DNA of 64,000 nucleotides from Candidatus Aenigmatarchaeota archaeon. GTDB lineage: Archaea > Aenigmatarchaeota > Aenigmatarchaeia > PWEA01 > JACQIF01. Where the stretch lies: positions 128,001-192,000 of the forward strand of contig CP066684.1 of the NCBI GenBank assembly GCA_016432325.1. Reading direction: 5' to 3'. This document shows, one piece after another, positions 4,111-64,000 of this stretch. Numbering within the stretch: position 1 is the first letter of the stretch; the number at the start of each line of letters is the position of its first letter. The notes under the pieces are model-generated. The model was not told where the DNA came from and made no database searches. It saw nothing but the letters and a program-made list of their open reading frames with translations. The position numbers and the translations under genes are program-made.

Positions 4111-4743
4111 TTATTTTTTAATCCAGTCCTTAAGCTCTTTCAGGATGTTCTCCGCGCCTTCGTTGTCCACGATCTCCCAAGCGCGTTTGTATGGAGGGTC
4201 CTTGGCGTCCCTTGATTTCAGAGAGACCAACGCATCTTCCCCGAACGTCTGGGGCAGAACGATTGCGAGAGCGGCGTGAACGGGGATGTGGTTTCTCGTC
4301 ATCACGTCCTCGCCTGCGTAGCGTTCGTGAAACGTCTTCCAGTAGTCTCGAAGACGGCCTGGCCCCTCGTACATCAGGTTCACGTGCGCAAGCTCGTGAA
4401 CAAGCGTAAGCACGGCTCTGGAAGGCTCGGTCTTGCCCTCATGCGTTGTCAGGGTTAACGGATATCCAAAACCGTTGACCGCGTAGTTGACGACGAAACA
4501 GGTAACGGCGTCGTCCTTCCACGGCAGCCCGGTCGCCCGCTCTATTCCCTCTATGACCGCCCTTTCCTTCGGTTCCCATATCTCATACAGCTTGCGGGTG
4601 AAACCGAACGCCTGCGTTTTCGACAGCTCTCTGTCGAACGGTTTTACAGAAGGGTCGCGCGTATAGTGGCCGAAGCGGGCCCTGTAGAACGAACTGTCAT
4701 ACGGAGCAGAATAGACGAAATCCACCTTCACTTTTTCACCCAC
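4111..4743 (-). CDS. Hypothetical protein with HExxH (zincin-like) motif
   Basis: VHELAH motif; overlaps the fen stop, consistent with co-transcription. Confidence 0.65.
   Translation of the reverse strand: MGEKVKVDFVYSAPYDSSFYRARFGHYTRDPSVKPFDRELSKTQAFGFTRKLYEIWEPKERAVIEGIERATGLPWKDDAVTCFVVNYAVNGFGYPLTLTTHEGKTEPSRAVLTLVHELAHVNLMYEGPGRLRDYWKTFHERYAGEDVMTRNHIPVHAALAIVLPQTFGEDALVSLKSRDAKDPPYKRAWEIVDNEGAENILKELKDWIKK
4598..4647. repeat. Palindromic three-way-junction element inside a CDS
   Basis: GTGAAACCG/CGGTTTTAC stem encloses AACGC-CT-GCGTT and TTCGACAG-CTCT-CTGTCGAA with no unpaired junction bases. Confidence 0.7.
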
Positions 4744-5753
4744 TTGTCGAGCCTTTCCTGCCTCCCTTTGGCGTCTTCAAGCTTTTTAATGGCACTTTCG
4801 ATGCGTTCGCGCCCGAATTCGTGCTCGCTGACCATTATCCGCATTATCTCGTTGACATCAGGCTCGCGCCACTTCAATGTGTAATCGCGCGTCACAGGAG
4901 GGTTCATGAAAAATTCATAGACGTCGTGCGCGGAGACATCCCAACGCCATTCGAGTCCCTCTAACGCATGCGCAAGCGTCTTTTTCCTTTTCACGAGTTC
5001 CAGCGCCTTCTTGGGTCCTATTCCCCTGAAGCCGCCGGGATTGAAGTCCGTGCCTATGAGGACGCCTAGAACGACCAGCTGTTCTCTGTCGATTCCGTTC
5101 GCGCGCAGGGTATCGTCAAGACGAATCATTTCAGGCTCGACGTTCACGTAGACGCGTTTGCCCGGAAGCTTGCGCTTGCCCCCGACAGCGATGTTTCTGA
5201 GAAGCGTCGGCGCTCCGAAAAGAAGGCAGTCGTAGTCTTGCGACGAGACGGCCCACACCTCGCCTCTCTGTGCCATCGCGGCGGCCTGCGCCTCGCCTTC
5301 TGACGGAGCGTTTACGTAAGGAACGCCCATCGCCTCGAGAAGCTCCTTCGCGTCTGCTACTATATCGTCTGTCATGCTCGTGGACATCATGGCGTACTTG
5401 CGGGCCTCTTCCATGTCGCCCTTGGCGAGGGCTTCCTTGTGCAGCGCCTGCGCTTCCTCTTTCACGGCGCGCCTCTGTTCCACCGTCGTAGATTTGAAGA
5501 GCGGTGGAACACCGTCAAAAACGTAACACGGCTTGGCCCCATGCTCAAGAAGCTTTATCGTGCGGTAGAAAAGCCCGGAAAAATGCGACGTGACGCGGCC
5601 TTTGGAGTCACGCAGGGGCGTTCCGTCGGGCTGGCGTATTATCGTCAGGAACTGATAGAGAACGTTCATGGCGTCTATGGCAATTTTGCGGCCTGTCAGG
5701 TCTTCGAGAGTTATAGGCTTCCTGACGAGCATGCCTGAGATGTCAACGCCCAC
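4728..5753 (-). CDS. fen: Flap endonuclease 1
   Basis: IAIDAMN.LYQFL, GTPLRD, APSEGEAQ, SQDYD, GTDFNPGG..GIGPK, C-terminal PIP-like QERLDKW. Confidence 0.97.
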   Translation of the reverse strand: MGVDISGMLVRKPITLEDLTGRKIAIDAMNVLYQFLTIIRQPDGTPLRDSKGRVTSHFSGLFYRTIKLLEHGAKPCYVFDGVPPLFKSTTVEQRRAVKEEAQALHKEALAKGDMEEARKYAMMSTSMTDDIVADAKELLEAMGVPYVNAPSEGEAQAAAMAQRGEVWAVSSQDYDCLLFGAPTLLRNIAVGGKRKLPGKRVYVNVEPEMIRLDDTLRANGIDREQLVVLGVLIGTDFNPGGFRGIGPKKALELVKRKKTLAHALEGLEWRWDVSAHDVYEFFMNPPVTRDYTLKWREPDVNEIMRIMVSEHEFGRERIESAIKKLEDAKGRQERLDKWVKK

Positions 5754-5780
5754 GCGATCCCCGTTCTGTATTGAATGGAA

Positions 5781-6392
5781 TCATATATAGTTCTTCGTTA
5801 TGAAGAGGCCGTCCACTGTCTCTGACGATTCGTAGAACAGAGGCGCGTCCCACGGTATCTCAAGCTTTGCGACCGCCTCCTTGCTCAGACCGTCCAGATG
5901 CTTTACGAGCGCGCGGATGCTGTTGCCGTGGGCCACGACAAGCACGTTAGAACCCGCAGCGATGTCCGGTAGGATATTGCTCCTCCAGTAAGGCAGGACG
6001 CGTTCTGAAGTGTCGCTGAGGCTCTCGCCGTTCGGCGGCCGGCCTTCGAAAGAGCGCCGCCATTGCATGAACTGCTCTTCGCCGTATTTCCTGCGTATCT
6101 CGTCCTTGTTCATGCCTTGAAGGTCCCCGTAGTTCCGCTCGTTCAGGGCCGCGCTCCTCTCGGTGGGGACGCCGTTCATGCCCAGTTCGGAGAGAACGAT
6201 GTCCGCGGTCTGAATGGCCCTTTGCATCGAGGACGTGTGGAGCTTGTCTATCTTGCGGCCCACAAGCTTCTTCGCGGCCGTCCTGGCGTCTTCCTCGCCT
6301 CTTGGGCTCAGCGGAACTTCGGCCCATCCCGTGAAGCGGTTCTCCGCGTTCCATTGGGACTGGCCGTGGCGCAATAGGATTAGGTCTGTCAT
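5781..6392 (-). CDS. gpmA: 2,3-bisphosphoglycerate-dependent phosphoglycerate mutase
   Basis: LLRHGQSQWNAENRFTGW, LNERNYGDLQG, AHGNSIRA. Confidence 0.92.
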   Translation of the reverse strand: MTDLILLRHGQSQWNAENRFTGWAEVPLSPRGEEDARTAAKKLVGRKIDKLHTSSMQRAIQTADIVLSELGMNGVPTERSAALNERNYGDLQGMNKDEIRRKYGEEQFMQWRRSFEGRPPNGESLSDTSERVLPYWRSNILPDIAAGSNVLVVAHGNSIRALVKHLDGLSKEAVAKLEIPWDAPLFYESSETVDGLFITKNYI

Positions 6393-6428
6393 CGGTTTCA
6401 GAAGCACGCATAAAGATAAAAATACCCT

Positions 6429-7493
6429 TTACGCTTCCGTGCTTTCCGTTCTTGGCACAATTAAACTGACAATCTCCCCCGCAGCTTCAGGCAGTCCGTT
6501 CGAATAGGCGTTGATACGCGACGCTAATGTCGTGTAGAGCATATATGCCGGCATTAGAGGCGCGGCCAGAACGTCGCGAGTTCCCAGCTTATCGCCAGAC
6601 GCCGCGGCAAGCCCTGCAACAACCGCGCCGCTTGTAACGGCCCACGACGCCGCCTTGTTCAGCGCAGAAGGATCTCCTCTGATTGCAGAGTCGCAGATGT
6701 CGTAGATGCCGAGGGGGATTGTGATGTGCGACGAGACGGCCAGCCACGACGCGGCAGAGAGGCCATTCGGTCTCAGCATGTTCCGCGCAATATACGGAGC
6801 TTCTTTAGCGAGCACGCGCTGGCATCCCCTCTCCCAGCCTGCCCTTTGTCTGGAATGTTGTCCAAGCGTGCGCGGCGCCACTGTTCTGACCTCAATCTCC
6901 GGAATGAAGCCGGCTTTGTAACCGTCTTTCTGAATCTTAATCGTCAGCTCCATGTCGTCTCCCAGATATTCGCCGCTGTGATCGTCGAGAGCATCCTCGA
7001 GAACGCTGCGCCTGTAGATGCTGCCGGCGCCGGGCGTTATCATTTGCCTTCCTCCAAGCAGGCGCCTGAAGCCGTTAGCCATCTTGTATTCCAGAGATTG
7101 CATGCTTCCAAACACGCCTCCGGGGTTCGCCACGTTCATCCGGAAAGCCGCGGCCGCGTATCCTTTCTCCTCCATGCGGCCGCATGCCCACTCCAGATCC
7201 TCCGGCGCGCTGACTATCCGCGTGTCGTCATCCGTAGTAACCACGTAATCTATGTCCTGCGGCAGTCCGTTGACGGCTTTCTTGACCGCACCGACCTTGC
7301 GGCCGTTGACCGCCATCCTGAGAAGCTTCGGTCCCGGCGGGCTGTTGCTTGAAAAGCGCTCTATCTCGCCCAGAGTGCCGTCCGTTGAGGCGTCATCGAC
7401 GAGCGTCATCCGCTGGACGTGCGCGCTGTTGGATTCAAGGCTCGCGCGTATCGTATCGGCGCCGTTGTAGACGGGAACGACAATCTCGTACAT
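6429..7493 (-). CDS. GT2-family glycosyltransferase (processive, NodC/IcaA-like)
   Basis: VPVYN, VDDASTD, TDDD, GDDM, QRAGW (QxxRW variant) and C-terminal hydrophobic segments. Confidence 0.85.
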   Translation of the reverse strand: MYEIVVPVYNGADTIRASLESNSAHVQRMTLVDDASTDGTLGEIERFSSNSPPGPKLLRMAVNGRKVGAVKKAVNGLPQDIDYVVTTDDDTRIVSAPEDLEWACGRMEEKGYAAAAFRMNVANPGGVFGSMQSLEYKMANGFRRLLGGRQMITPGAGSIYRRSVLEDALDDHSGEYLGDDMELTIKIQKDGYKAGFIPEIEVRTVAPRTLGQHSRQRAGWERGCQRVLAKEAPYIARNMLRPNGLSAASWLAVSSHITIPLGIYDICDSAIRGDPSALNKAASWAVTSGAVVAGLAAASGDKLGTRDVLAAPLMPAYMLYTTLASRINAYSNGLPEAAGEIVSLIVPRTESTEA

Positions 7494-7562
7494 AGATATC
7501 ACTACTAGTAGATGACAGAAGCTATATATACCTCAATTTGGCCTATCTCTGTTCTACGGGCC

Positions 7563-7702
7563 TTTATATACCTTTTGTGCGAACACACGCCATACCTTTG
7601 GGATTCACCCGGTTTCGACTTGGTGAAATCCGACTCGGTGATTTAATGGATGAAATACAAGAATTTCAAACCTACCTCGCCTGCATAGGGGTGGCGATGT
7701 AG
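7563..7702 (+). promoter_or_regulatory. TATA box and structured 5' leader of rps15
   Basis: TTTATATA at 7563; hairpins including CTAC/GTAG and TCGCC/GGCGA covering the SD-like GGGGTGG. Confidence 0.5.
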
Positions 7703-8158
7703 ATGGCAAGAATGCACTCCGGAAAGCACGGGAAATCCCGCTCAAAGCGGCCGATACGCAAGACCGTTCCCAAGTGGGTCCGTTACAAGCCGGACGAAGT
7801 GGAAAAGCTCGTTCTGAAGCTCGCCAAGGAAGGCCGGACGTCGGCGCAGATAGGCACTCTCCTGCGGGACGAATACGGCGTGCCGCACGTCAAGGAGATA
7901 ACAGGCAAGCGTCTCGTCGCGATACTGGCGGCGCATGACCTCGAGCCCCAGCTGCCCGAAGACCTTTTCAGCCTGATGAAGCGCGCCGTGCACATCATGG
8001 AACACCTCGTCAAGCACAAGCACGATCCTTTCGCGATACACGGTCTCGAGCTCACGGAATCCAAGATAAGGAGACTCGGCAAGTATTACAAGAGGAAAGG
8101 CAGGCTCCCGGAAACCTGGGCGTATGACCGCGAGCAGGCCAGACTGTTGGTTAAGTGA
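7703..8158 (+). CDS. rps15: 30S ribosomal protein uS15 (S15P/S13e)
   Basis: MARMHSGKHGKSRSKRP, IG..LRD.YG, LPEDL, ESKIRRL. Confidence 0.97.
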   Translation: MARMHSGKHGKSRSKRPIRKTVPKWVRYKPDEVEKLVLKLAKEGRTSAQIGTLLRDEYGVPHVKEITGKRLVAILAAHDLEPQLPEDLFSLMKRAVHIMEHLVKHKHDPFAIHGLELTESKIRRLGKYYKRKGRLPETWAYDREQARLLVK

Positions 8159-8163
8159 TTGCA

Positions 8164-8799: not shown

Positions 8800-8909
8800 A
8801 AAAATATCGTCTGGAGCAGCAGTCATCTTTTTATACTCGCGCGACGAATCTATTCCGTACTCTTTCTTGGGCGTGCGTCGTTGGTGTACACTCACCAAAG
8901 TGATTAACA

Positions 8910-22224: not shown

Positions 22225-22263
22225 TGCCGGAAACTTGAAACCCGCGGTTTCATAGTTCGGGCA
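22225..22263. repeat. TGAAACC-CGC-GGTTTCA hairpin element in the uppS-RPA spacer
   Basis: Perfect 7-bp stem with a triloop at 22236-22252, extended by AACT/AGTT and TGCC/GGCA. Confidence 0.6.
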
Positions 22264-30408: not shown

Positions 30409-30692
30409 CAGCGCTCACCGACGCTTTTTCTGAGAGCACGCAATATCTCTTCCTCGTCTCCGAGAACGCTCTCCACTATCTCGGATTTTATGCTGTCCGC
30501 CGACTTGAGCCTGCCTTCCATGCCGTCGATTCTGCTTTCAAGCATGCGCACCTTTCGCTTGAGCTCTTCCAGCATGGATGTGAGATACTCTACGTCTTTT
30601 GAAGGCGCGGCGTGCGCGCTTCCGAGTTCTTCCCTGACCTCTTTCAGGGACTCTTCCACGGCTTCACGCACGGCGTCTTTAAGGGTTCCCAT
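30408..30692 (-). CDS. 94-aa coiled-coil protein
   Basis: SD GGTGA before ATG 30692; coiled-coil core. Confidence 0.75.
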   Translation of the reverse strand: MGTLKDAVREAVEESLKEVREELGSAHAAPSKDVEYLTSMLEELKRKVRMLESRIDGMEGRLKSADSIKSEIVESVLGDEEEILRALRKSVGER

Positions 30693-30712
30693 GAACTTCA
30701 CCAATTTCCTCG

Positions 30713-30795
30713 TGGGATGTACGAGAACCACGTTCTCGACATGTCGAAATTCCACGGAATTTCGTACAACTTGAAATCGCATTTCATTGTTCCCA
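30713..30795. repeat. Multi-branched palindromic element
   Basis: TGGGA/TCCCA, TGTAC/GTACA, GAGAAC/GTTCTC, GACATGTC, GAAATTCC/GGAATTTC and TGAAAT/ATTTCA stems, most of them abutting. Confidence 0.8.
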
Positions 30796-31364: not shown

Positions 31365-31943
31365 TTAAACGCTTCCCGAGCCGTGCGGGAGAAACTTTAA
31401 AACCGCCGTTTTAAACGTGCTTACCCGCGTTCTCGCGAGGCCGGCCAGAATGGATTTCTTCTTCAGCCACGCGAACCACAGGGCCAGAACGGCGGCCGCC
31501 ATTCCTGCCTGCCAGAGAATGTCGTGGAAGAGGTAAAACGTTTCGACCCCGTAGAATGCCGAATACGACGTGACAGAGACGCGCACGATGTTGATGGCGT
31601 AGATTAGGGGCACAAAGACCGCGATTCCGAGCAGTTTCTCCGCAGACTTGGCCTTGGCCGCAACTATCAGTGCGGCCAGGAAGAACGCGCTCTTCCAACC
31701 CGTGGAATCTCTCGAAACCAGGACGTCAAACCCGTCGAAACGGAGCACGGCGCCATTCAACTGCGCGTTGACGCCGAACAGAGCGAGCGCCGAGTGCACG
31801 TTTTGGGCGGTGAATGTCTGGAGCCACGAAAGGTCGGCGTATGCTATGGCCAGATGGAAGGGTATCGCCATGGCCGAGAGCTTCAGAAGAAAGTAAAAGG
31901 AGTTCTCCAGCCTCCTCGTCTGCCTCTCCGACAAGTCAATCAT
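31365..31943 (-). CDS. Archaeosortase/exosortase-family protein (catalytic Cys replaced by Ser)
   Basis: V.RDSTGWKS, NIVRV, FHD and TM pattern. Confidence 0.8.
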   Translation of the reverse strand: MIDLSERQTRRLENSFYFLLKLSAMAIPFHLAIAYADLSWLQTFTAQNVHSALALFGVNAQLNGAVLRFDGFDVLVSRDSTGWKSAFFLAALIVAAKAKSAEKLLGIAVFVPLIYAINIVRVSVTSYSAFYGVETFYLFHDILWQAGMAAAVLALWFAWLKKKSILAGLARTRVSTFKTAVLKFLPHGSGSV

Positions 31944-36308: not shown

Positions 36309-37061
36309 ATGGACGTCGTGACATACGCGATAGCCAGCGTGATTCTCGTGAGCGCCGTATCCTTCGTCGGTGTGGCCGCGCTCGCGATAAGCAGGAAGAG
36401 ATTGCAGAGGATGCTTCTATACATGGTCGCGTTCTCCGCGGGCGCGCTTCTGGGCGACGTCTTCTTCCATCTCCTGCCTGAGACCGTGGAGACCGTCGGC
36501 TTCACCTCGCAGGTGTCGCTTTACGTGTTGTCCGGCATAGCCGTCTTTTTCGTCGTCGAGAAGGTCGTCCTCCGGACGCACGCTTCGAACGCCGCGCGTT
36601 CAAAGCGCGAATCCGTTCACTCGTTCGCGGTCATGAACCTTCTGGGCGACGGCATCCATAACTTCATCGACGGCCTCATCATAGGGGCAAGCTACATCGT
36701 GGCGACGCCGATAGGCATCGCCACAACGCTTGCCGTGGTTTTGCACGAGATTCCCCAGGAGATTGGGGACTTCGGTGTCCTGATGCGCGGCGGTTTCTCG
36801 AGAAAGAAGGCGCTTCTGTTCAATTTCATCACGGCCCTGACGGCCGTGGCAGGCGCAGGCGTCGCGCTCGCGCTGAACTCTTACGTGGGAGGCCTGACGG
36901 ATTTCCTCATCCCGTTCGCCGCCGGCGGATTCATATACATCGCGGGAGCCGACCTTATACCCGAACTTCACAAGGAATCGGGCGCGTTGCAGTCGTTGTT
37001 GCAGACGGCGGCTCTTATGCTCGGCTTGTTTGTGATGCTGTTGCTTAAAACCGCGGGTTAG
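36309..37061 (+). CDS. ZIP-family zinc transporter
   Basis: HLLPE, GDGIHNFIDG, HEIPQEIGDF, AAG.FIYIA..DLIPE. Confidence 0.93.
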   Translation: MDVVTYAIASVILVSAVSFVGVAALAISRKRLQRMLLYMVAFSAGALLGDVFFHLLPETVETVGFTSQVSLYVLSGIAVFFVVEKVVLRTHASNAARSKRESVHSFAVMNLLGDGIHNFIDGLIIGASYIVATPIGIATTLAVVLHEIPQEIGDFGVLMRGGFSRKKALLFNFITALTAVAGAGVALALNSYVGGLTDFLIPFAAGGFIYIAGADLIPELHKESGALQSLLQTAALMLGLFVMLLLKTAG

Positions 37062-37192
37062 CGTTCGAGAAGCTTGAGAAGACCGACCAATACGAGGAAC
37101 GCCCCTGCGAGTATGGAGAGAAGCTCGGGTTTCCACAGTATGAGCGCTCCGCTGACCAACGCCAGCGCACCGAGCACGCGTTCGTCTTTCAA
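37058..37192 (-). CDS. 44-aa two-TM microprotein (DUF3096-like; absent from ORF track)
   Basis: MKDERVLGALALVSGALILWKPELLSILAGAFLVLVGLLKLLER; GGAGGGG SD before TTG. Confidence 0.7.
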   Translation of the reverse strand: MKDERVLGALALVSGALILWKPELLSILAGAFLVLVGLLKLLER

Positions 37193-37271
37193 CGTATCCC
37201 CTCCATTGGAATTAGACCCCGGCGGGTGGTCACATCAGGCATAAATATTGGCTTCCCCATTATATAAGTCA

Positions 37272-37440
37272 CCTAGTGGGGTGGTTTTTCGGTCTCAGGC
37301 GTTTGCCGGGCCGAAGCGTTGGGGCGCATTCGCACTGCCTTCAGACGCGCAGGCGTTTGAAGTCAATACCTTCTGGTGCAAGGTGCCGTGTCCTCGACAC
37401 TCAACCCGAAGTGGTGTCGAATGCCCTCACGGCCACTAGG
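37272..37440. ncRNA. Candidate structured non-coding element of about 170 nt
   Basis: Terminal CCTAGTGG/CCACTAGG stem enclosing several internal hairpins; no convincing ORF. Confidence 0.5.
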
Positions 37441-37452
37441 ATTTTCGTTTTC

Positions 37453-37605
37453 TCATGCCAGCTGACTGACGAGCCCTATCTGGCTGTGAATGAGGATAAA
37501 GAGGACAATAAGAAACAGTATGAGAAAGACGGAGGCGCACGCGTACAAAGGCGTCTGGTCGAATCCCCTGTCGCCGAGCATGTCCAGTGGTTGGCGACGC
37601 CGCAT
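37453..37605 (-). CDS. Possible small single-TM protein with pilin-like N-terminus
   Basis: MRRRQPLDMLGDRGFDQTPLYACASVFLILFLIVLFILIHSQ... Confidence 0.4.
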   Translation of the reverse strand: MRRRQPLDMLGDRGFDQTPLYACASVFLILFLIVLFILIHSQIGLVSQLA

Positions 37606-37619
37606 AAAAACCTTTGCTG

Positions 37620-40286
37620 TCAGTCGATTATCCTGTAGCCGAGCAATCTTTTCGCAATCTCCGTCGTCGCCAGCACCGTCAGCGACACGGCTACCACGGC
37701 GACCCAGTCTCCGAAAGTCAGGGGCACGACTTCGAACACGGCGGCCAGCGGCGTGTAGAGCAGAACGAACTGAAGCGCGACAGAGAGAGCCACTGCCGCG
37801 AGGAGATACTTGTTGCGCAGGATTCCCTCTTTCAGCAGCGAGTCGTTCGTCCTGCAGCAGAACACGTTCACAATCTCGTACATCACGATAGTCGTGAAGG
37901 CAACGGTCTGCGCGTAGGCCGCGCCCTTCGGAAGATATGCGTAGAAGAGGGCGAGAGTGCCGACGGCCATTGTCGCGCCGACAGAGAGCAGGAACGCAGC
38001 GGTGTTCCAGTCCAGGATGGCCTTGTTCTTGGCGACGGGCTTCCTCCTCATCGCGTCCTTGGAGATGGGGTCCGCGCCAAGCGCTATCGCAGGCAGCCCG
38101 TCGGTGGCTATGTTTATCCACAGCAGCTGCAGCGCCTGAAGCGGCAGCACGGGGAACAGAAGGACGCCGAAGAAGAGTACGAAAACCTCCCCTATGTTTG
38201 AACTCAGGAGGTAGTTGACGAACTTCTGCACGTTGTCGTATACGCCGCGGCCTTCTTCGATAGCTGCGACGATGGACGAATAGTTGTCATCCACGAGAAC
38301 CATGTCGCTCGCTTCCTTGGCGACGTCCGTGCCTGTGACGCCCATCGCGACACCGACGTCGGATTTCTTGAGAGCAGGCGCGTCGTTGACGCCGTCGCCT
38401 GTCATCGCGACCACGTGGCCGTGTTTTTTGAGGGCGTCCACAATGCGCACCTTGTGCTCCGGATCGACGCGCGCAAAAACGGAAACGGTGCGTATCTTCT
38501 CCGCAAGCGCGTCATCGCCCATCTTGTCGAGTTCCTTGCCTTCGACGACATCGCTGCCGTCAAGCTCTACCAGCTGCGCTATCGCCCGCGCGGTGAGGGC
38601 GTTGTCTCCGGTGACCATGATAGTGCGGATGCCGGCTTCTCGCGCTTTCGCTATCGACGACTTTATCTCTTCCCTCGGCGGGTCCATCATGCCGGCGATT
38701 CCGAGGAAAACCAGTTCGCGTTCCGTTTGTTCGGGCGTGTATTCGCTCCGTTTCTCGATTTCCCTGTACGCGAACGCGAGGACGCGCAGCGCTTCGGAGC
38801 CCATGTGCCCGACCTCGGATAAGATGCGCACGCGATCTTTCTGGGTGATTGTACGGATGCGTCCGTCCGCCAGTATGCGGTCGCAGCGCTCCAGAATCTC
38901 CTCAGGAGCGCCTTTGGTGTGCACGACGAGCCCGCGCCCGACGGCGTTCACGGTGCTCATCATCTTGCGTTCCGCGTCGAAGGGTATCTCGGCCATGCGC
39001 GGATGTCTCTTCTCCTGTTCGGCTTTCTGCAAACCGGCCTTGCCGGTCAGCGTCAGAAGACATCCTTCGGTCGGGTCTCCAAGAACGTCCCAGCCGTTTT
39101 TCTGCACAATCTCCGCGTTGTTGGCCAGCACAGCCGTTCTTAACATGAGCATGAGGGTGTCGTTCTTTATCGCGTCTGTTTGTCTGCCGGCCTTCGTGAA
39201 TGCGCCTTCTGGCTTGTATCCTATGCCCGTAACGTCATAGACATTTTCATCGCAATAGACGCGCGTGACGGTCATCCTGTTCTGCGTCAACGTCCCTGTC
39301 TTGTCCGTGCAGATGACGGATATGGAGCCGAGCGTCTCGACGGCAGGCAGTTTTCTTATTATTGCGTTTCTTTTCACCATTCTTTGCACGCCGAGCGCAA
39401 GGGATACCGTGACTACGGCGGGCAATCCCTCGGGTATCGCGGCGACGGCCAGAGCAACGCCCACTATGAACATCTGCCTCACGATGTCGAGCGTTATCAG
39501 AGGGCTCTTCAGGACTCCTGCGAGGGCGACGACCGCGACTATTACCAGCGTTGCCAGGCCGAGTTTCTTGCTTATCTCCTCCATCTTTATTTCCAGCGGC
39601 AGCTTCTCTTTGCCCTCCTGTACGAGAGACGCTATCCTTCCCAGCTCGGTCTGCATACCAGTGCTTACGACGATCGCTCTGGCGACGCCGTAGGAGACAT
39701 CCGTGCCCATGAAAACCATGTTGGTTCGCTGCACGACAGTCGCGTCATCCTTCAGGACTCCAGAGAATTTTTTGACAGGAACAGATTCGCCGGTGAGCGA
39801 CGCCTCCTGCATCTTCAGGTTGCTGGATTCGACAATCCTCGCATCCGCGGGTACTTTGTCCCCGGGTTCCAGTGTGACGATGTCTCCAGGCACAAGCTCA
39901 GACGTAACCACTTCTGTCTTCCTGCCGTCCCTGATAACAGTGCACGTATTCTTGACCATCTTCCTGAGCGCCTCGAGCGCGCGCTCGGCCTTGTACTCCT
40001 GGAAGAATCCCAGCGCGGCGTTTAGTACGAGTATCGCTAGTATCGCTATCGCGTCAAGCCCCTCGCCTATGGCAGCAGACACGAGGGCCGCGATGAGCAG
40101 CAGGATGACCAGGAAGTTCTTGAACTGGTCAAAGAACATCACTATCGGGTTTACGCCGCCTACGCGCTTGAGCTCGTTGCGGCCGTATCTTTCCAGCCGC
40201 GACGGCGCTTCTGCAGACGAGAGGCCCGACGCCGATGAGTTGAGCTCCTTATAGACGGCGTCTATAGGCGACGAGTGCCAGAGCAT
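37620..40286 (-). CDS. P-type IIA (Ca2+-type) cation-transporting ATPase
   Basis: [41 protein letters not shown]. Confidence 0.96.
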
Positions 40287-40318
40287 AAGCGTATTGGAAA
40301 GAGCCCGTTCTTAAATCA

Positions 40319-40507
40319 TCATTCGCCCTTCTTCTTGAGAACGATATCGCAGTTGGGGCACATGCCCTTCTCCTTGTACATGGTGCTGCAAATCTCGCAG
40401 ACGTAACGGGCCCTTTTCTCCTCTTTTTTCTCTTCGTCGCCCTCTTCTTCGCTTTCCTCGTCTCCTGTGTCAGCGGACTCGTATTTCTCGTCTTCTTCGT
40501 CTGGCAT
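40319..40507 (-). CDS. Acidic zinc-finger microprotein
   Basis: D/E-rich N-terminus, YVCEIC...GMCPNC; GAGGTG SD. Confidence 0.75.
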   Translation of the reverse strand: MPDEEDEKYESADTGDEESEEEGDEEKKEEKRARYVCEICSTMYKEKGMCPNCDIVLKKKGE

Positions 40508-40516
40508 CGTTACACC

Positions 40517-40669
40517 TCATTGGCTCGCGGGCGGGTTGAAAGCGCCCAGTACGTTCAGCAGGAACAGCAGCAATTCCGTGGGCGTGGGCAGCCCGAGCAG
40601 TTTCAATCCTACGTGGACGGCCACATATATTACAATCAACCACAGCAGATGCTTGAGCTTCATACCCAT
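40517..40669 (-). CDS. 50-aa membrane microprotein (absent from ORF track)
   Basis: MGMKLKHLLWLIVIYVAVHVGLKLLGLPTPTELLLFLLNVLGAFNPPASQ; fills the gap between flanking genes with coupled ends. Confidence 0.6.
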   Translation of the reverse strand: MGMKLKHLLWLIVIYVAVHVGLKLLGLPTPTELLLFLLNVLGAFNPPASQ

Positions 40670-42348
40670 GCGCCTTTCCTGTACCTGTCTTTCAGGTGCC
40701 GTACGTGATGCTTCCTCATGGTTATTATATCTTTTCCCCTGCCCAGCGTGAACTCGCTGACCATCTTGGCCGCGGTTTCGCTGCCCAGGAAATGCGGCAT
40801 CACCACATAGTCGGCTCCCATGCCGTACAACTCTTGCGCGTCTTTGACCGTTCCTGCCGTAACGAAGATAATGGATCCCGTCTTTTTGAAGCCGTCTATC
40901 ACAGACGCGCTGTCGTCAAACCCCGGCATCGTGGACACGACGAGTTTCGGCTTCAGCCGCAACAGTCCTTCCTGCACGTACGCGTCTGTGGCGTCTCCGT
41001 AGAGGCAGTTGTATCCCTTTGCGCGCAGCTCTTTGACAACCGCGGGGTTGAAGTCTATGACCGACAACTTTTTCTTGGCCGTTTTCATGTGCGACAGGAA
41101 GACGCGGCCCATCCTGTCGCATCCTATCAGTATGGTGTCGGCGCGGTATTTGCGCATGTTCGGTTTCAGCTCTTTGATGTTCTTGCGCTCGAACACGCCG
41201 AGGTACGGGGCGAGCAGGCGGAACAGCCTCTCGCCGTGCGCCATCATGTAGACAGAGCCGGCTATCGTCACGGCGCCTACCAGAGTGACAAGCGTGACGG
41301 CCGTCTGCGTCACGTGGCCGAATGCAAGGCCGAGGGCCATCAGTATCAGCGAAAATTCGCTTATCTGGGCGATTGTCAGACCGGTCATGAAACCCGTCCG
41401 CTTCGTGTAGCCGAGCGCTCCCATCAGGACCATCACTATCAGTGGGTTTCCGACGAGCACGAAAAGAGACAGCGCGAGCGCCGGATAGAGGATCGTTCCT
41501 ATCAGCGCGGGAGTCATCTGCGTTCCCAGAGCGATGAAGAACAGGACGACGAAGAAATCGCGGAGCGGCCGGATGCGCGAGCCGAGGTCATACGTATACG
41601 GAAGGGAAGCCATGCTGACGCCGGCGAGGAAGGCGCCTGCCTCTATGGACAGCTCGGCGGCAGCCGCTATTCCGGCAAAGAGGAACATCCACGCGATGCC
41701 TGCGAGGAAGAGCAGCTCCTGCGAGCGCGCGATATATCCCATGACAGGCGGCAGGAAGTAGCGGCTTGATAAATATACGAGCGCCAGGAACAGCAACGTC
41801 TTTCCGGCGGTGAGTCCCACGAGAACGGGCAACGGAACTCCCGAAGCGAAGCCTGTTATCAGTATCAAAACGACGATAGACACGAAGTCCTGCACAAGGA
41901 GCAAACCGACGGACACCTTGCCGTAGAGAGCATCCAGATCCCCCTTGTCCGAGAGTACCTTCACGACTATGACGGTCGACGAGAACGTGAGCGCGGCGCT
42001 GATGTACAATGCTTCGACCATTTCGAAACCCATGGCGCGGACGATGAAGTAGCCTATAAGCGAGGTGAAGAGCACCTGTCCCAGTCCTGTCACGAAAGAG
42101 ATGCTTCCGACCTCTCTCAGCACGCGGGGCTTGAGGTTAAGGCCTATCAGGTATAACAGGAATGCAACGCCGATCGCGGAGAACGCTTCGAGGGTTCCGG
42201 ACGGTTTCACGAATCCGAGCACAGGGCCGACGAGCAGGCCGGCGATTATGTAGGCGATGATGGGCGGCTGTCTCAGCGCGTGCGCCAGTAATGCGACGAG
42301 CGCCGATGCGACTACGACGAGCCCGATGTCAAAGAAGACCGACGACAT
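40660..42348 (-). CDS. CPA2/Kef-type K+/H+ antiporter with RCK_N domain
   Basis: FSST..VVK.L, LVQD, LRDFF..LFF, QISEF, G..R.G, YGDA. Confidence 0.93.
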   Translation of the reverse strand: MSSVFFDIGLVVVASALVALLAHALRQPPIIAYIIAGLLVGPVLGFVKPSGTLEAFSAIGVAFLLYLIGLNLKPRVLREVGSISFVTGLGQVLFTSLIGYFIVRAMGFEMVEALYISAALTFSSTVIVVKVLSDKGDLDALYGKVSVGLLLVQDFVSIVVLILITGFASGVPLPVLVGLTAGKTLLFLALVYLSSRYFLPPVMGYIARSQELLFLAGIAWMFLFAGIAAAAELSIEAGAFLAGVSMASLPYTYDLGSRIRPLRDFFVVLFFIALGTQMTPALIGTILYPALALSLFVLVGNPLIVMVLMGALGYTKRTGFMTGLTIAQISEFSLILMALGLAFGHVTQTAVTLVTLVGAVTIAGSVYMMAHGERLFRLLAPYLGVFERKNIKELKPNMRKYRADTILIGCDRMGRVFLSHMKTAKKKLSVIDFNPAVVKELRAKGYNCLYGDATDAYVQEGLLRLKPKLVVSTMPGFDDSASVIDGFKKTGSIIFVTAGTVKDAQELYGMGADYVVMPHFLGSETAAKMVSEFTLGRGKDIITMRKHHVRHLKDRYRKGAWV

Positions 42349-42386
42349 ACGCGTGGTGGCGCACCGGAGAATAAAAGCGTTTTGTC

Positions 42387-50615: not shown

Positions 50616-50616
50616 C

Positions 50617-50741
50617 TTTATATCGCGCCTCACCCATTTCTTCGCATGAAGTTTACCGCTCAGAGAGCCAAGAGGGACCGGTAAATGCATGAAACTGCGG
50701 TTTCATATTTACTTCGCAGAGATATGGGAGGTGCTCGGTAA
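50617..50741 (+). promoter_or_regulatory. TATA box and structured leader with two tandem uORFs in frame with the HerA-like gene
   Basis: TTTATAT at 50617; uORFs 50646-50684 and 50685-50741, each ending CGG TAA and followed by ATG. Confidence 0.55.
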
Positions 50742-52034
50742 ATGCCCGTCCGTCCAATAGTCATCGGCAGAGACGAAGAGGACGCGAAGCGTTTTGGCGA
50801 ACTGGGCACGATCACCCTCGGCAAGCACATCGTCGGCACAGGCGAGGACGCGCATCTCACGAACACGATAGTGATGGACGTCGCGCGTCCGCACGTGATG
50901 CTCGTTCTGGGCAAGCGCGGCCAGGGCAAGTCCTACACGCTCGCGACCATAGCAGAAGGCGTAACAGAGCTGCCTAAGGATATCCGCTCGAACCTCTCTG
51001 TCGTGATAATCGATACCATGGGAATCTTCTGGTCCATGAAAAATCCGAACGAAAAACAGGTCGAACTCCTCGCCGCGTGGGGTCTTCAACCCAAGGCTTT
51101 CGACGTTACGGTTTACGTGCCGCACGGCCACAAGGATTTCTTCCATAAGGAGGGCATCCCTTACGACGGGACGTACGCTTTGAATCCGTCTGACCTTACT
51201 CCAGAGGACTGGGCGCTGTCTTTCGAACTGTCTCTGATAGACCCGACTGGCATACTTCTCGATCGTGTCGTGCGCAAGCTGAAAGAGAGCGGCAGCTATG
51301 GAATCGACGACATCATAGAAGCCGTAGACGCGGACAGGCGGGCCGAGCCGAAAGTCAAGGAAGCCCTGCAGAACCGCCTGCTTTCGGCAAAGGAGTGGGG
51401 TCTCTTCTCGTCGCGCGGCACGCCGATAGAGGAGCTCCTGCAGCCCGGCAAGGTTTCTATAATCGACACGTCGCTCTTCAGCCAGCTCGGGGAAGGATGG
51501 AGCGTGCGCTCGCTTCTTGTGGGTTTGGTGGCTCGTCGCATATACGAAGCCCGCATCGCCGCCCGCAGGCGCGAGGAGACAGAACTGATCACCGGTACGG
51601 TCGCCAAGAAGAAGATTCCTTTGACGTGGTTGATGATAGACGAGGCGCACCAGTTCCTGCCGGCGGACGGACGTACAGCGGCCACTGAAGCGCTGCTCTC
51701 TCTCGTGAAGCAGGGCCGCCAGCCCGGCATTTCCTGCGTGTTCGCCACTCAACGCCCGAACAAGCTTCACGAGGACGCGATATCGCAGGCCGACCTCGTG
51801 CTCACGCACCGCCTGACAGTAAAGGCGGACATCGATGCGCTGCGCAGCATCATGCAGACGTACGTTCTTTTCGACATCACGAAATATCTCAATGAACTGC
51901 CTCGCGAGAAAGGTGTGGCGCTTGTGCTGGACGACAATTCGGAACGCCTGTTTACGTTGAAGGTAAAACCGCGCCAGTCATGGCATGCAGGCGACACGCC
52001 GATAGCGCTGAGAGTGAAGGAAGGGCTGGTTTAG
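50742..52034 (+). CDS. HerA/FtsK-like ATPase (DUF87)
   Basis: GKRGQGKSY, IIDTMG, IDEAH, QGRQPG, ATQRP. Confidence 0.9.
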   Translation: MPVRPIVIGRDEEDAKRFGELGTITLGKHIVGTGEDAHLTNTIVMDVARPHVMLVLGKRGQGKSYTLATIAEGVTELPKDIRSNLSVVIIDTMGIFWSMKNPNEKQVELLAAWGLQPKAFDVTVYVPHGHKDFFHKEGIPYDGTYALNPSDLTPEDWALSFELSLIDPTGILLDRVVRKLKESGSYGIDDIIEAVDADRRAEPKVKEALQNRLLSAKEWGLFSSRGTPIEELLQPGKVSIIDTSLFSQLGEGWSVRSLLVGLVARRIYEARIAARRREETELITGTVAKKKIPLTWLMIDEAHQFLPADGRTAATEALLSLVKQGRQPGISCVFATQRPNKLHEDAISQADLVLTHRLTVKADIDALRSIMQTYVLFDITKYLNELPREKGVALVLDDNSERLFTLKVKPRQSWHAGDTPIALRVKEGLV

Positions 52035-61700: not shown

Positions 61701-61740
61701 ATCGACATTCAAGAGTTGGGAGTATGAACCGAAAGCCTAG
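58726..61740 (+). CDS. purL: FGAM synthase PurL with fused PurS-like N-terminus
   Basis: AQTWSEHCKHKIF, KFESHNHPS, GRDGIHGAT, DCGAGG, SESQERM, QYDHEVQG, SGKDSM. Confidence 0.95.
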   Translation: MAVSVIQVGYKADQRDPDGEKTLRELRNAGLRVEDVRVLKNYRIESDLLQDELERLTRGLFLDPIAQQVSLNEPLDVPADAAVEVAFKGGVTDREGRTAQEAISDFLGRSFEGKVYTSAEYLLRGGLTDAELERASSMLHNSRIKDATVTRTRELRTAVPHVDGAHEIRVDTVDLNVSDEQLLSISKRGTLSLDLKEMKTMQEHFVRPAIVQERVSMGFPVAPTAAEIEILAQTWSEHCKHKIFNAVVDYTNLDTGESRTIDSLFETCIKGPTERAMKRGRTPIVVAFKDNAGIATFNKGWNYCEKFESHNHPSGLDGYGGSMTGLNGVQRDILGAGLGAKLISGHFAYHLGPLDYEGPLKSRFHPRDLLSAIHKGVVDAGNQTGIPTTNGSVRTDLGWLGKPGVLVGARGIMPAEINGRPSHLKEIRPGYAAIMIGGRVGRDGIHGATASSGGLHKESPTSSVQLGDPIVQKREMDLQMEARDRGYYTGVTDCGAGGLSSSIGETAQLSGGAEVDTSVVPLKHGFLQPDETIVSESQERMVVAAPRENVPAFLELSRKRHVESTVVGKYTNTGKFHVHHGGRPVAYLDMEFLHNGAPRKRLEAEWRKPVNPEPRFARSSGRRLDEELLMLMSRPNLASIEVLMRQYDHEVQGGSVIKPFVGKNRDVASDAVVQRPLLDSMEGLAFSQGSNPDLSRIDTYHMATNAMDEAVRRVVAVGAPLRRRDGKDNILVNDNFFWPSPLFDAKNNPDGKYKMAQLVRANEGLAAYAQSMGVWPFSGKDSMSMDSEHDDGTGKITKVSGLPMLLISASAKVEDVRDCVTMDFKQKGDVVYIVGKTDGRMGASEFALMNSENAIGNDVPEVNFRTSRRTYARTHDAIARGLVSSVHGCYKGGLAAALAQSAIGGDCGVSVDIGSYADVCGTTDVETLFAETPSRFVVSVSQERARAFERLMGPVTAAKIGHVNGGARSVDVSFYGRHIIETETQELRDASKSTFKSWEYEPKA

Positions 61741-62584
61741 GGTTGCCGTGCTGACAGGAGACGGGATAAACTGCGAGGTCGAGATGGCCTACGCCTTCCG
61801 ACTTGCGGGCGCGCAAGCCGACATCATACACCTGACAGACCTGTTCAACGGGGACAGGACGCTCGAACCGTACCAGATGCTTGGGCTTCCCGGAGGCTTC
61901 CATGCGGGTGATGATCTCTGTTCTGGCAAGGTTCTGGCCAACCAACTGCGCACGAAGCTGCGCGAACCTCTCGCGGAGTTCGTTGAAGACGGAAAGCTCA
62001 TGATCGGAATATGCAACGGTTTCCAGGCTCTCGTGCGCGCGGGGATGCTGCCTGCAACGGACGGCATAGACTGGAAGAGCGACGACCCGCAGGTTTACCA
62101 GCAGGCGACGCTCGCGGCGAACGACTCCGGCCGTTTCGAAGACAGGTGGGTTACTGTACGAACTCCCACTATGCTGGAAGAGCTCATCGATACAGATGGT
62201 CCTGTCACGCCCTTCACAAAGTACGTGCGCCAGATCGATTTGCCCGTTCGCCATGGAGAGGGCAAGTTCGTATCTTCCAGAAAAATGATGGATAAGATGT
62301 GGAGCAACAGGCAGATATCATACCTATACGCCAACCCATGCAGTGGAGAAAGGACGGCCGGCTATCCGTGCAACCCCAACGGAGCGATGGACGACATCGC
62401 TGCGATTTCAGACCCCACAGGACGCATCTTCGGCATGATGCCGCATCCCGAGGCTTACAACCACCCCACAAACCACCCCGACTACACGCGCTGGCCCAGA
62501 GAGAAGAGGCGGGCCATGAAGGAAGGCGAAGGCATAGCCATTCTGCGCGGCGGAGTGGAATATGCGCGAGAGCGGCTGCTTTAG
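61724..62584 (+). CDS. purQ: FGAM synthase glutaminase subunit
   Basis: GINCE.E, PGGF..GD, GICNGFQ, HGEG, GMMPHPE. Confidence 0.96.
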   Translation: MNRKPRVAVLTGDGINCEVEMAYAFRLAGAQADIIHLTDLFNGDRTLEPYQMLGLPGGFHAGDDLCSGKVLANQLRTKLREPLAEFVEDGKLMIGICNGFQALVRAGMLPATDGIDWKSDDPQVYQQATLAANDSGRFEDRWVTVRTPTMLEELIDTDGPVTPFTKYVRQIDLPVRHGEGKFVSSRKMMDKMWSNRQISYLYANPCSGERTAGYPCNPNGAMDDIAAISDPTGRIFGMMPHPEAYNHPTNHPDYTRWPREKRRAMKEGEGIAILRGGVEYARERLL

Positions 62585-62591
62585 AAATTAT

Positions 62592-62700
62592 TGGAGCGGG
62601 GGTTGGGAATTGCACCCAAGTAGATCCGCTTTCCGGCATGTCGGAAAATCGCGTTTCCGCACGCCTGCAGGCGGACGCATAGCTGCTCTGCCACCCCCGC
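62592..62700 (-). tRNA. tRNA-Cys(GCA) with a 34-nt intron at 37/38 (62631-62664) and encoded CCA
   Basis: GCGGGGG/CCCCCGC acceptor stem, U73 then CCA, TCCGC/GCGGA anticodon stem, CT-GCA loop, TTGGG/CCCAA T-stem; 75 nt after intron removal. Confidence 0.92.
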
Positions 62701-62701
62701 G

Positions 62702-64000
62702 TCACTTGATGAAACGCCACCTCGGGCCTTCCGACGTATCTTGGACTTCAATTCCGTACTGGTCCAAGAGCCTCTTCCGCAGCTCGTCCGCGGCCGTGAA
62801 GTCCTTCTGCTTCCTCATCTCTTCCCTCTGTTCGATAAGCTTCTTAACCTCGGCGGGTAGAGGGCGTTCCTCTTTTCTGAGTACGGCAAGGACACTGTCA
62901 AAGTCGTGCATTGTGTCGAGTACTCGCTGCGCGTCGCGGGAAGCCATCGCCTTCGTTTCGAGCAGCTTGTTGATGGAACCCACGAAGTGATGCAGAGATG
63001 CCCACATCTCCGGCACGTTAAGGTCATCGTCCATCGTGCGCTCGAACTCTTTGCGCACCTCGGCGACCAGCTTGCGTACGGCTGTACTGCTCTTCCCGTT
63101 CTTGTGACGTGCGAGCCGATCCATGAACTCGTCGAGCTTGTCGAGCGTGTTCGCGGCGTTCTTCAGCGACTCCCAGCTGAAAAGCTGCTGCGTGCGATAG
63201 TGCGCGGTCAGGTAAAAAAACCTCAGCTGGCGCGGCGTGAACGTTTCGTCGATAACGCTCTGCAACCGCAGGAAGTTCCCTTTGGATTTTGCCATCTTCA
63301 AAGGCCGGGCCTTTGAAGTTTCCGACCAATTGTCGGAAATTTTTGTGTCGCTCACGTTCAGGAATTCGCAGTGGAACCAGTACTTGGCGAAAGGACGGCC
63401 TGTGGCCGCCTCGCTCTGCGCGATTTCATTCGTGTGGTGTACGGGTATGTGGTCTATGCCTCCGGCATGTACGTCGAGCGTGCGTCCCAGATACTTCATT
63501 GCCATCGCAGAGCACTCGATGTGCCAGCCGGGGAATCCTCGGCCCCAGGGCGAGTCCCATTCCATGTGGCGTAGCGTGCCCGCAGGAGTGAGTTTCCACA
63601 GCGCGAAGTCCGTGGCGTTGCGCTTGCCTGCCGTGACCTCGACGCGCGCGCCTGCCTTCAATCCTTCGATGTTCAGGCGCGCCAGCTTCCCGTAATCCTT
63701 GAGCCTGGACGTATCAAAGTAGACTCCATCGCGTATCTTGTATGTGTAACCCTTGCGTTCGAGAGTTCTGACGAGAGTAATCTGTTCACTTATGTGGTCT
63801 GTCGCGCGGCACCAGATGTCAGGCATGAGTGCGCCCAGAAGCTCCAAGTCGTTCTTGAAGACCTTCTCGTAAAACGCAGCAATATCCCAGGCGCTCTTAT
63901 GCTCGCGCTGCTCGGCGACTACCATCTTGTCCTCTCCCTGATCGGCGTCATCGGTCAGGTGCCCGACGTCCGTGACGTTCGTGACGTGCTTGACGCGGAA
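62702..64000 (-). CDS. cysS: Cysteinyl-tRNA synthetase (5' end outside the window)
   Basis: NVTDVGH, DFALWK, WDSPWG.G.PGWHIECSAM, GGIDH..HH.NE.AQ, KMAKS, HYR. Confidence 0.97.
   Translation of the reverse strand, partial: FRVKHVTNVTDVGHLTDDADQGEDKMVVAEQREHKSAWDIAAFYEKVFKNDLELLGALMPDIWCRATDHISEQITLVRTLERKGYTYKIRDGVYFDTSRLKDYGKLARLNIEGLKAGARVEVTAGKRNATDFALWKLTPAGTLRHMEWDSPWGRGFPGWHIECSAMAMKYLGRTLDVHAGGIDHIPVHHTNEIAQSEAATGRPFAKYWFHCEFLNVSDTKISDNWSETSKARPLKMAKSKGNFLRLQSVIDETFTPRQLRFFYLTAHYRTQQLFSWESLKNAANTLDKLDEFMDRLARHKNGKSSTAVRKLVAEVRKEFERTMDDDLNVPEMWASLHHFVGSINKLLETKAMASRDAQRVLDTMHDFDSVLAVLRKEERPLPAEVKKLIEQREEMRKQKDFTAADELRKRLLDQYGIEVQDTSEGPRWRFIK
63296..63340. repeat. 45-nt double-palindrome in-frame insertion in cysS
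   Basis: CTTCAAAGGCC-G-GGCCTTTGAAG directly abutting TTTCCGAC-CAATT-GTCGGAAA. Confidence 0.85.

Follow-up and report, generated by a model that had tools for sequence, protein, structure and literature searches.

Short perfect palindromes as probable non-autonomous insertion elements in the genome of an Aenigmatarchaeota archaeon

What are the short, perfect hairpins that recur in the genes, 5' leaders, and a tRNA intron of a small archaeal genome, and how did they come to lie there? The stretch of DNA analyzed here (the window; 64,000 nt) comprises bases 128001 to 192000 of the closed 874,869-bp chromosome of a Candidatus Aenigmatarchaeota archaeon, with a G+C content of about 57%. A first-pass annotation of the window had described several hairpin-forming loci as one dispersed family, an undescribed modular micro-element that adds peptide and RNA segments to its hosts, and every hairpin that it cited is present where it was said to lie. 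Our analysis of the whole chromosome and its relatives makes it probable, if by no means secure, that a genus-specific superfamily of short perfect DNA palindromes acts as non-autonomous insertion elements. The core of the earlier proposal thus stands, with exact in-frame inserts in the genes for CysRS, Lhr, uL5, and PolB and a family confined to one genus, but hairpins are not enriched inside the window itself.

Hairpin abundance in the window, the genome, and its relatives

Genes were called with a crude self-trained open reading frame (ORF) scorer (885 genes, 85% coding), and for this reason all coding and intergenic counts are approximate. Perfect stems of at least 7 bp with loops of 0 to 8 nt numbered 37 in the window, compared with 36.8 ± 5.8 expected from dinucleotide shuffles. 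The codon-preserving control, in which synonymous codons were shuffled within each gene, spacers were permuted, and known RNAs were masked, gave an expectation of 8.6 ± 3.6 coding stems of at least 8 bp in the window (12 observed), and shuffled spacers gave 2.8 intergenic stems of at least 7 bp (2 observed). A hairpin density no higher than in shuffled controls had been named as grounds for refuting the proposal, and the window shows just that. Genome-wide enrichment, which had been proposed as a check, was found: intergenic stems of at least 8 bp numbered 143 versus 16.3 ± 3.4 expected, and those of at least 9 bp numbered 77 versus 3.6 ± 1.9. The excess in coding sequence was smaller yet significant (135 versus 107.4 ± 8.4 for stems of at least 8 bp and 42 versus 27.8 ± 4.0 for those of at least 9 bp, codon-preserving shuffles). 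The genome-wide hairpin excess is real and strong. Intergenic loops peak at 3 to 4 nt and stems at 8 to 10 bp, and neighboring hairpins abut, forming arrays of two to five.

The motifs thought to be reused among the window loci fared unequally. TGAAA-N3-10-TTTCA is enriched both in the window (4 versus 0.5 expected, P = 0.005) and in the genome (54 versus 6.6), but the literal TTCCGAC..GTCGGAA arm is not (3 versus 5.2 expected in the genome), and the 8-mer AACGCCTG/CAGGCGTT (6 versus 2.7 in the window, 71 versus 34 in the genome) shows an approximately twofold surplus that fits k-mer bias. A scan for overrepresented octamers was dominated by codon bias and was uninformative.

Distribution was examined in this genome, in its congener (a sister species of the same genus, G001, represented by a 73% complete assembly), and in 369 other genomes of the phylum. 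This genome has 19 copies of the hairpin TTCGAAC-N1-10-GTTCGAA and the congener 10, but none of the 369 others has more than one, and the reversed-pattern control gave 0 occurrences in this genome; judged by this motif, the hairpin family is confined to one genus. The congener also has a hairpin excess (123 stems of at least 8 bp versus 41.6). Samples of 200 kb from each of two other, more distant genomes of the class likewise show an excess with other stem sequences, and one of the two carries 71 stems of at least 9 bp versus 6.5 expected. The sampled relative G022, from another family of the class (C4:100001-300000), has an even larger hairpin excess than the genome studied here (138 stems of at least 8 bp versus 28), and its stem families are its own (GGCAGAAAC.., CAGAGAAGC.., CCTTTTCTTT.., and CCACCGTCT..) and are also clustered. 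A high hairpin load may therefore characterize the class as a whole, with families specific to individual lineages.

Insertions in genes and the architecture of the elements

The window includes a copy within the gene for cysteinyl-tRNA synthetase (CysRS; cysS), which lies on the minus strand from 62702 to 64000 and continues past the window end (genome positions 190702 to 192177; 491 aa). The protein matches tRNA-synt_1e (7.5e-69), DALR_2, and CysS_C in Pfam and is the sole CysRS match in the genome. Its insert, a double hairpin of type B (see below) at 63296 to 63340 on the minus strand, runs in the sense direction as TTTCCGAC-aattg-GTCGGAAA and then CTTCAAAGGCC-c-GGCCTTTGAAG and reads in frame as ISDNWSETSKARPLK; on the forward strand, CTTCAAAGGCC-g-GGCCTTTGAAG begins at 63296 and TTTCCGAC-caatt-GTCGGAAA begins at 63319. 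The insert amounts to exactly 15 codons directly N-terminal to the KMSKS motif (here MAKSK), and it coincides exactly with a gap of 15 residues that 19 orthologues from the order and class show at this point. These residues are missing as well from P0002 (64 to 66% identity), the closest homologue in a database of 5.8 billion proteins, and the closest named homologues belong to metagenome-assembled genomes of Aenigmarchaeota/Aenigmatarchaeota. As nucleic acid, the insert folds into two independent hairpins (z score, -4.2) with unpaired A-rich flanks. An AlphaFold2 model of the protein is confident overall (mean pLDDT, 85.3), and residues 281 to 294 of the insert are predicted to be unstructured (pLDDT of <50), which is weak evidence of disorder given an alignment without homologous residues there.

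Further inserts of this kind were found elsewhere in the genome. The Lhr helicase has a 16-aa (48-nt) insert that is absent from 15 orthologues, including that of the congener at 79% identity; the empty site in the congener reads GAAGG|AGACAAC, and 48 nt composed of two hairpins stand between these halves in this genome. Ribosomal protein uL5 carries a 48-nt (16-aa) insert and the family B DNA polymerase (PolB) a 17-aa insert, both absent from the congener, and RpoE/Rpo7 has an insert of 14 to 15 residues in its tail. Polarity was set by outgroups. The empty sites that had been proposed as a check in relatives are thus documented, with the CysRS, Lhr, uL5, and PolB inserts all corresponding to gaps in orthologues. 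An additional case of 24 nt was found. The same PolB position (genome 40421 region, gene 39867-42356; G001 C33, about 2999 to 3028) holds different hairpin inserts in the two species and is either a reused permissive site or the place of an old insert that evolves fast yet stays palindromic.

In the comparison with the congener, which covered 60 of its 90 contigs (369 kb), 6 of 35 aligned coding hairpins coincide with gaps, versus 48 of 5000 random control windows, and the six fall in three loci (PolB, uL5, and Lhr). The reverse comparison gave 5 of 34 congener coding hairpins as gaps in this genome, again in three loci, and the sister species has insertions of its own. The gap count matches the size of the coding excess, and insertions therefore explain essentially all of that excess. 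All in-gene inserts tested (45, 48, 48, 51, and 24 nt) are multiples of three and free of stop codons, and the 308 genes that have a congener orthologue showed no insertion that breaks the frame. Two candidate gene pairs apparently split by frame-breaking hairpins proved to be tandem paralogues and were rejected. In-gene pairs stand mostly in one orientation (6 sense, 1 antisense), and about three-quarters of all element frames are stop free. From their sequences, the in-gene inserts are presumably translated as short unstructured surface loops, such as that before KMSKS in CysRS.

The basic element is a perfect hairpin of about 20 bases, mostly paired as a double hairpin of about 45 bases. 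The latter, type B (44 to 48 nt), consists of two abutting hairpins, TTTyCGrAC..GTyCGrAAA and CTTCGAAn..nTTCGAAG-A, with the oriented consensus TTT(T)CGRAC-loop-GTYCGAAA-(TA)-CTTCGAAN-loop-NTTCGAAG-A. This genome has 14 strict copies, and 369 kb of the sister species yielded another 7; all 21 oriented pairs keep the same two hairpin types in the same order, with A as the next base in 20 of 21. Type A, a three-way junction, has the palindromic skeleton GTGYA-CG[hairpin]CG-RCATGY-CG[hairpin]CG-TRCAC and at least 13 copies in this genome; a copy at genome position 649153 belongs to RNase P RNA and was excluded. Elements also nest: four type A copies hold a further hairpin pair in their central CATG, and hairpin pairs are often enclosed by an outer stem or placed at the center of another palindrome. 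The loci first grouped as one family mix at least three things, namely, the double hairpin, the GTGYACG..CGRCATGYCG..CGTRCAC junction, and a fixed TGAAAC hairpin.

Pairing is maintained while stem sequence varies. Position 8 of the CTTCGAA stem is C:G, G:C, A:T, or T:A among copies and is always complementary. Intergenic stems of at least 9 bp comprise 81 perfect ones versus 49 with one mismatch, and G:T is not favored over A:C among the mismatches (14 to 9), which argues that pairing is kept at the DNA level and not only in one RNA strand. We infer from tips that vary yet stay Watson-Crick that the palindromes are maintained as DNA or selected as DNA or single-stranded DNA hairpins, rather than as an RNA fold.

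Hairpins near start codons and other loci of the window

The fixed hairpin TGAAAC-N4-GTTTCA differs in its placement: 42 of 54 copies are intergenic, often within a longer outer stem, and the hairpin usually lies 12 to 43 nt upstream of a start codon, directly before a GGTGA ribosome-binding site. It is probably a co-opted or separate expression signal. Four TGAAA..TTTCA matches lie in the window. TGAAACC-cgc-GGTTTCA (22236 to 22252) stands in the 49-nt spacer between a UppS gene and an OB-fold gene, 16 nt upstream of a start and within an outer GAACT/AGTTt stem. ATGAAAC-tgcg-GTTTCAT (50689 to 50706) lies 36 nt upstream of the start of a HerA-like gene, and its core, TGAAACTGCGGTTTCA, has six identical occurrences in the genome. 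TGAAAT-acaaga-ATTTCA (7651 to 7668) is in a divergent intergenic region, and TGAAAT-cgc-ATTTCA (30772 to 30786) adjoins a type A module.

That module (30722 to 30770, minus strand) reads in the sense direction GTA-CGAAATTCC-gt-GGAATTTCG-ACATG-TCGAGAAC-gtg-GTTCTCG-TAC and shares its skeleton with at least 13 other genomic copies; with its neighbor it makes up three abutting hairpins (30722 to 30786). It is located upstream of an ATG at 30692 that has a GGTGA Shine-Dalgarno sequence, and the congener orthologue aligns from residue 31 only, which suggests that this ATG is likely the true start of the gene. The same holds for other copies close to N termini (L7Ae, a pilin, and DUF1405 in addition to 30722), where the congener protein aligns downstream of the element only; these copies more likely lie in 5' leaders or lineage-specific extensions. 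Several copies that had been taken to lie within ORFs are thus probably in 5' leaders. Likewise, the claim that copies within genes keep the reading frame is correct for CysRS, but the 30722 copy is probably upstream of its start and the palindrome at 36581 is not a clean insertion or deletion. The latter, an imperfect CTTC-type palindrome (CGCTTCGAACGC-cg-GCGTTCAAAGCG; 36581 to 36607, plus strand) in a variable loop of a ZIP transporter, reads as ASNAARSK, and it was rejected as a clean insertion despite its family-like sequence, orthologue loops being merely 2 residues shorter.

In several places (window 30692-30790 and 50640-50745; genome 481593, 395591, and 297996), direct repeats of the start region bracket a hairpin block that stands just before a start codon. 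At 30692-30790 the repeat ATGGGAAC stands on both sides of the whole hairpin block, and at genome 481593 the repeat is about 14 nt long. Such repeats create decoy start sites; insertion might have produced them as a long duplication of variable length, or they could act as a translational switch.

TATA-like palindromes, TTTAAAAC..GTTTTAAA, occur about 24 nt upstream of starts, some of them within a 95-nt module. One palindrome with such TATA-box-like arms, TTTAAAAC-cgcc-GTTTTAAA, is found at the end of an exosortase-like gene in the window (31396 to 31415), and this hairpin type recurs about 24 nt upstream of starts in the five copies of the module. The module precedes five genes (genome 13781, 273205, 370001, 448788, and 607584) and contains a small hairpin, a TTTGCGAAC hairpin, a CTTACGAAC hairpin, and a TTTAAAAC..GTTTTAAATA palindrome, with the ATG about 22 to 24 nt past the last TATA-like arm. 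In sequence it looks like a portable bidirectional promoter.

A three-way junction at 4607 to 4650 (minus strand) has an AAACCG/CGGTTT stem closing AACGC-ct-GCGTT and, at 4619, TTCGACAG-ctct-CTGTCGAA. ORF 4111-4743 includes the junction in frame in its N-terminal portion, with in-frame start codons solely upstream of the junction; the single distant homologue of this ORF aligns from residue 48 only.

About 700 nt from the CysRS insert, a tRNA-Cys(GCA) with a 34-nt intron (62592 to 62700, minus strand) was detected by ARAGORN with its intron option; default ARAGORN and Rfam at the gathering threshold both missed it and reported no tRNA in the window. The intron, a normal anticodon-loop intron, consists of CGGAAA..TTTCCG, ACATG, and CCGGAAA and resembles a truncated type A module. 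It matches a junction-type (type A) copy in the sister species (G001 C7:94-138) with 82% identity over 42 nt (E value, 7e-5), which upholds the proposed link between the tRNA intron and the hairpin family. The tRNA set of the organism is unusual: the intron option gave 12 tRNAs genome-wide, most with introns and 3 with implausibly long ones (965 to 1806 nt). The small-subunit (SSU) rRNA match (genome 637095-639272) spans 2178 nt versus a model of 1478 positions, with about 700 nt of insertions or introns, and the large-subunit rRNA match spans 3204 nt versus 2987.

The window also carries an archaeal signal recognition particle RNA and, at 37268 to 37444 (plus strand), a single-copy, closed structure of 177 nt (-80.6 kcal/mol; z score, -4.4). 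A 35-nt block of the latter recurs with 97% identity next to the ZIP orthologue of the sister species, amounting to partial conservation, and 37100-37650 has no Rfam match at an E value of ≤1. On its predicted fold, this region is a candidate structured RNA, distinct from the hairpin family and not its master copy. The items at 37296 and 37350, which had been counted with the family, belong to this candidate and are unrelated to that family, as is the chance-level 8-mer.

Mode of spread, competing explanations, and known systems

No target-site duplication accompanies the elements. The longest flanking direct repeat averages 3.96 nt versus 3.63 under the null, the duplication search at the junctions of the 21 oriented pairs gave chance-level results, and none was seen at the filled and empty Lhr and uL5 sites; an isolated 7-bp repeat, TTGCGAA, surrounds the copy at genome 52551. 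At Lhr and uL5, short microhomologies (GAAG) link the empty sites and the element ends. The earlier remark that no transposase lies nearby extends to the whole genome for the families searched, including the suggested HUH (TnpA/RAYT) nucleases. The closed 875-kb genome gave no RAYT/Y1 HUH (PF01797) match at an E value of ≤0.01, while control genomes were matched, and no TnpB, serine recombinase, rve, DDE_Tnp_1, IS110, or Cas1 gene anywhere; its only recombinases are two tyrosine recombinases. Neither a fixed-length target-site duplication nor a related autonomous insertion sequence with a transposase, as expected of miniature inverted-repeat transposable elements, was found. As a separate observation, identical palindromes, ATATAACACTGTTATAT, stand 10 kb apart at genome 279052 and 289066, the second beside a tyrosine recombinase frame (289344-289823), with similar palindromes at 318792 and 689929 and in the sister species; they may mark an integrated element with att sites or be dif-like sites.

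The comparisons show copies added at new sites, with no target-site duplication, in intergenic DNA, in the loops or centers of other palindromes, and in ORFs, and the copies that persist in genes are divisible by three in length and stop free. If the palindromes are insertion elements, those entering genes would survive only under these conditions and would then probably be translated as loops, and at least one tRNA intron would be built from the same palindrome material. Copying might proceed by an unrecognized hairpin-guided, single-stranded DNA mechanism or by templated copy-in during replication or repair, and intrastrand template-switch correction of quasi-palindromes could maintain pairing at the DNA level. 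We are doubtful of the more far-reaching idea that the modules are a self-propagating nucleic acid parasite without an enzyme of its own, spread by host replication and repair or by RNA splicing and ligation and serving as raw material for tRNA and rRNA introns, 5' leaders, promoters, and protein loops.

Several points weigh against insertion elements as the explanation. The window alone shows no excess over dinucleotide or codon-preserving shuffles, the two other class genomes have an excess built on other stem sequences, and part of the intergenic load may be functional or may stem from a general mutational process. No mobilizing enzyme and no insertion or excision intermediate was seen in the genome, and the units are far shorter and more variable in sequence than any characterized transposable element. 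The TGAAAC hairpins, fixed in sequence, spacing, and distance to the start codon, look regulatory rather than selfish. The coding and intergenic counts depend on a crude ORF scorer, and the congener comparison covered 60 of 90 contigs of a 73% complete assembly.

It is unlikely, though the idea deserves a serious hearing, that the hairpins as a whole are selected expression signals (for mRNA stability, processing, termination, translation control, or lineage-specific protein binding) whose abundance reflects use and not mobility. The roughly ninefold intergenic enrichment would be in keeping with this, as would the excess in other class genomes, the covarying stem tips, the 95-nt promoter module with TATA-like palindromes before five genes, and the fixed TGAAAC-N4-GTTTCA 12 to 43 nt before starts and ahead of GGTGA sites. 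Yet signals of this kind do not explain exact in-frame inserts in CysRS, Lhr, uL5, PolB, and RpoE that are absent from orthologues. Hairpin density is alike in divergent, tandem, and convergent spacers, and there is therefore no terminator pattern; it is highest in divergent (5'/5') spacers, and the T-run precedes the stem and belongs to it instead of following downstream as in an intrinsic terminator. G:U-compatible mismatches, moreover, are not preferred on the transcribed strand. Some of the intergenic load, the TGAAAC hairpins and promoter palindromes in particular, likely does serve a function, and this is compatible with insertion elements. An origin in place, by a lineage-specific quirk of replication or repair (fold-back priming or template switching) that makes and perfects palindromes and whose preferences produce the motifs, would dispense with mobility altogether. 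It draws on the predominance of perfect over one-mismatch stems, the absence of both target-site duplication and transposase, the GAAG microhomologies between empty sites and element ends at Lhr and uL5, and the different hairpins at one PolB site in two species. We consider it improbable, however, in that the inserts of 45 to 48 nt follow a two-hairpin consensus found in other copies and lack any source sequence nearby, and 21 copies from two species place the same two kinds of hairpin in the same order.

The tRNA-Cys intron of related sequence 700 nt from the CysRS insert, in a lineage rich in introns (few tRNAs are detectable unless introns are allowed, and the SSU rRNA match is 2178 nt versus 1478), invites the thought that the in-gene copies are mini-introns cut from mRNA by the archaeal splicing endonuclease and add no peptide. 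Against this, which we judge very unlikely, every insert tested has a length divisible by three and lacks stops, the 308 genes with a congener orthologue yielded no frame-breaking insert, and the cysS insert forms two separate hairpins whose flanks do not pair, so that no bulge-helix-bulge is possible. It is scarcely credible that the window loci are simply chance hairpins of a genome with 57% G+C. Window counts do equal those of shuffled controls, the 8-mer AACGCCTG and the literal TTCCGAC arm occur at or close to the frequency expected by chance, and about 80% of genomic coding stems of at least 8 bp are expected by chance, an account that could still apply to 36581 and to parts of 4607 and 31362. 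But the genomic intergenic excess amounts to about 9- to 21-fold, the gaps in orthologues match the hairpins exactly, and the motif is restricted to one genus; for the CysRS, type A, and TGAAAC copies, chance is refuted.

If the palindromes are indeed insertion elements, they have entered essential genes (CysRS beside KMSKS, PolB, uL5, and Rpo7), a tRNA intron, and one another. A closed 875-kb genome with no recognizable transposase and a sister species with filled and empty sites would make a tractable system, which could reveal how new sequence still arises in streamlined DPANN genomes and could test whether host replication, repair, or splicing enzymes suffice to spread hairpins. Were the modules parasites, they would link mobile palindromes directly to the origin of archaeal introns. 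In practice, such inserts will confound gene calling, tRNA detection, and the prediction of start codons in these genomes.

To our knowledge, gene-entering palindromic mini-elements are known from Rickettsia, one methanogen, and some mitochondria, and their movement is unsolved in every case. The Rickettsia palindromic elements (RPE), attributed to Ogata and colleagues (2000), are reportedly about 100 to 150 bp long and lie between genes and in frame inside ORFs, adding peptide; the MJRE repeats of Methanocaldococcus jannaschii, said to have been described by Suyama and colleagues in 2005, are reportedly longer and defined by sequence and would be an archaeal precedent for palindromic repeats within ORFs. 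The hairpins described here resemble both in occurring between genes and inside ORFs with the frame kept and peptide segments added, including in-frame copies absent from orthologues (CysRS, 15 aa; Lhr, 16 aa; uL5, 16 aa; PolB, 17 aa; RpoE, 14 to 15 aa). In contrast to RPE and MJRE, the unit here is a 20-nt hairpin or a 45-nt pair in which only stem bases are conserved, copies adjoin catalytic motifs (KMSKS), and a congener displays the empty sites; the difference in size (45 nt versus at least 100 nt) sets them apart and argues against homology. Bulge-helix-bulge introns of archaea, and the transposition of tRNA introns in Thermoproteales that Fujishima and colleagues reportedly treated in 2010, offer a parallel in the short structured segments common to a tRNA intron and other loci of an intron-rich lineage, but the in-gene copies here lack a bulge-helix-bulge and preserve the reading frame.

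REP/BIME elements are high-copy palindromes of 20 to 40 nt, mostly extragenic and often clustered, that occur in bacteria and archaea together with RAYT transposases (PMC3733652, PMC12306157). The archaeal hairpins are comparable in copy number, extragenic location, and clustering, being short, high-copy, mainly extragenic palindromes often clustered in arrays of 2 to 5, but none of the 21 copies has a GTAG/CGTC tag (the consensus starts with TTT and ends with GAAG-A), the genome has no RAYT/Y1-HUH gene, copies enter ORFs, and the clusters consist of perfect hairpins that abut, in place of imperfect REPs that alternate. PARCEL, the palindromic amphipathic repeat coding elements of surface proteins in Mollicutes and protists (PMC2996958), are likewise palindromic DNA translated in either orientation but are tandem coding repeats and not dispersed hairpin insertions. 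Closest in form are the mitochondrial repetitive hairpin-forming elements (RHEs) of sponges and double-hairpin elements (DHEs) of Allomyces (Paquin et al. 2000, as cited in PMC2800124). These too are pairs of short hairpins that abut, scattered through intergenic DNA and now and then within genes; close relatives differ in insertions, and neither flanking duplications nor an encoded transposase is reported (PMC2800124). They belong to eukaryote organelle genomes and show no sequence relationship to the archaeal hairpins, which reside in a free archaeal chromosome, have perfect Watson-Crick stems whose tips covary, and include in-frame copies within essential genes of nuclear type; the resemblance is architectural only. 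Mitochondrial double-hairpin elements are the nearest analogue in architecture and in the lack of flanking duplications.

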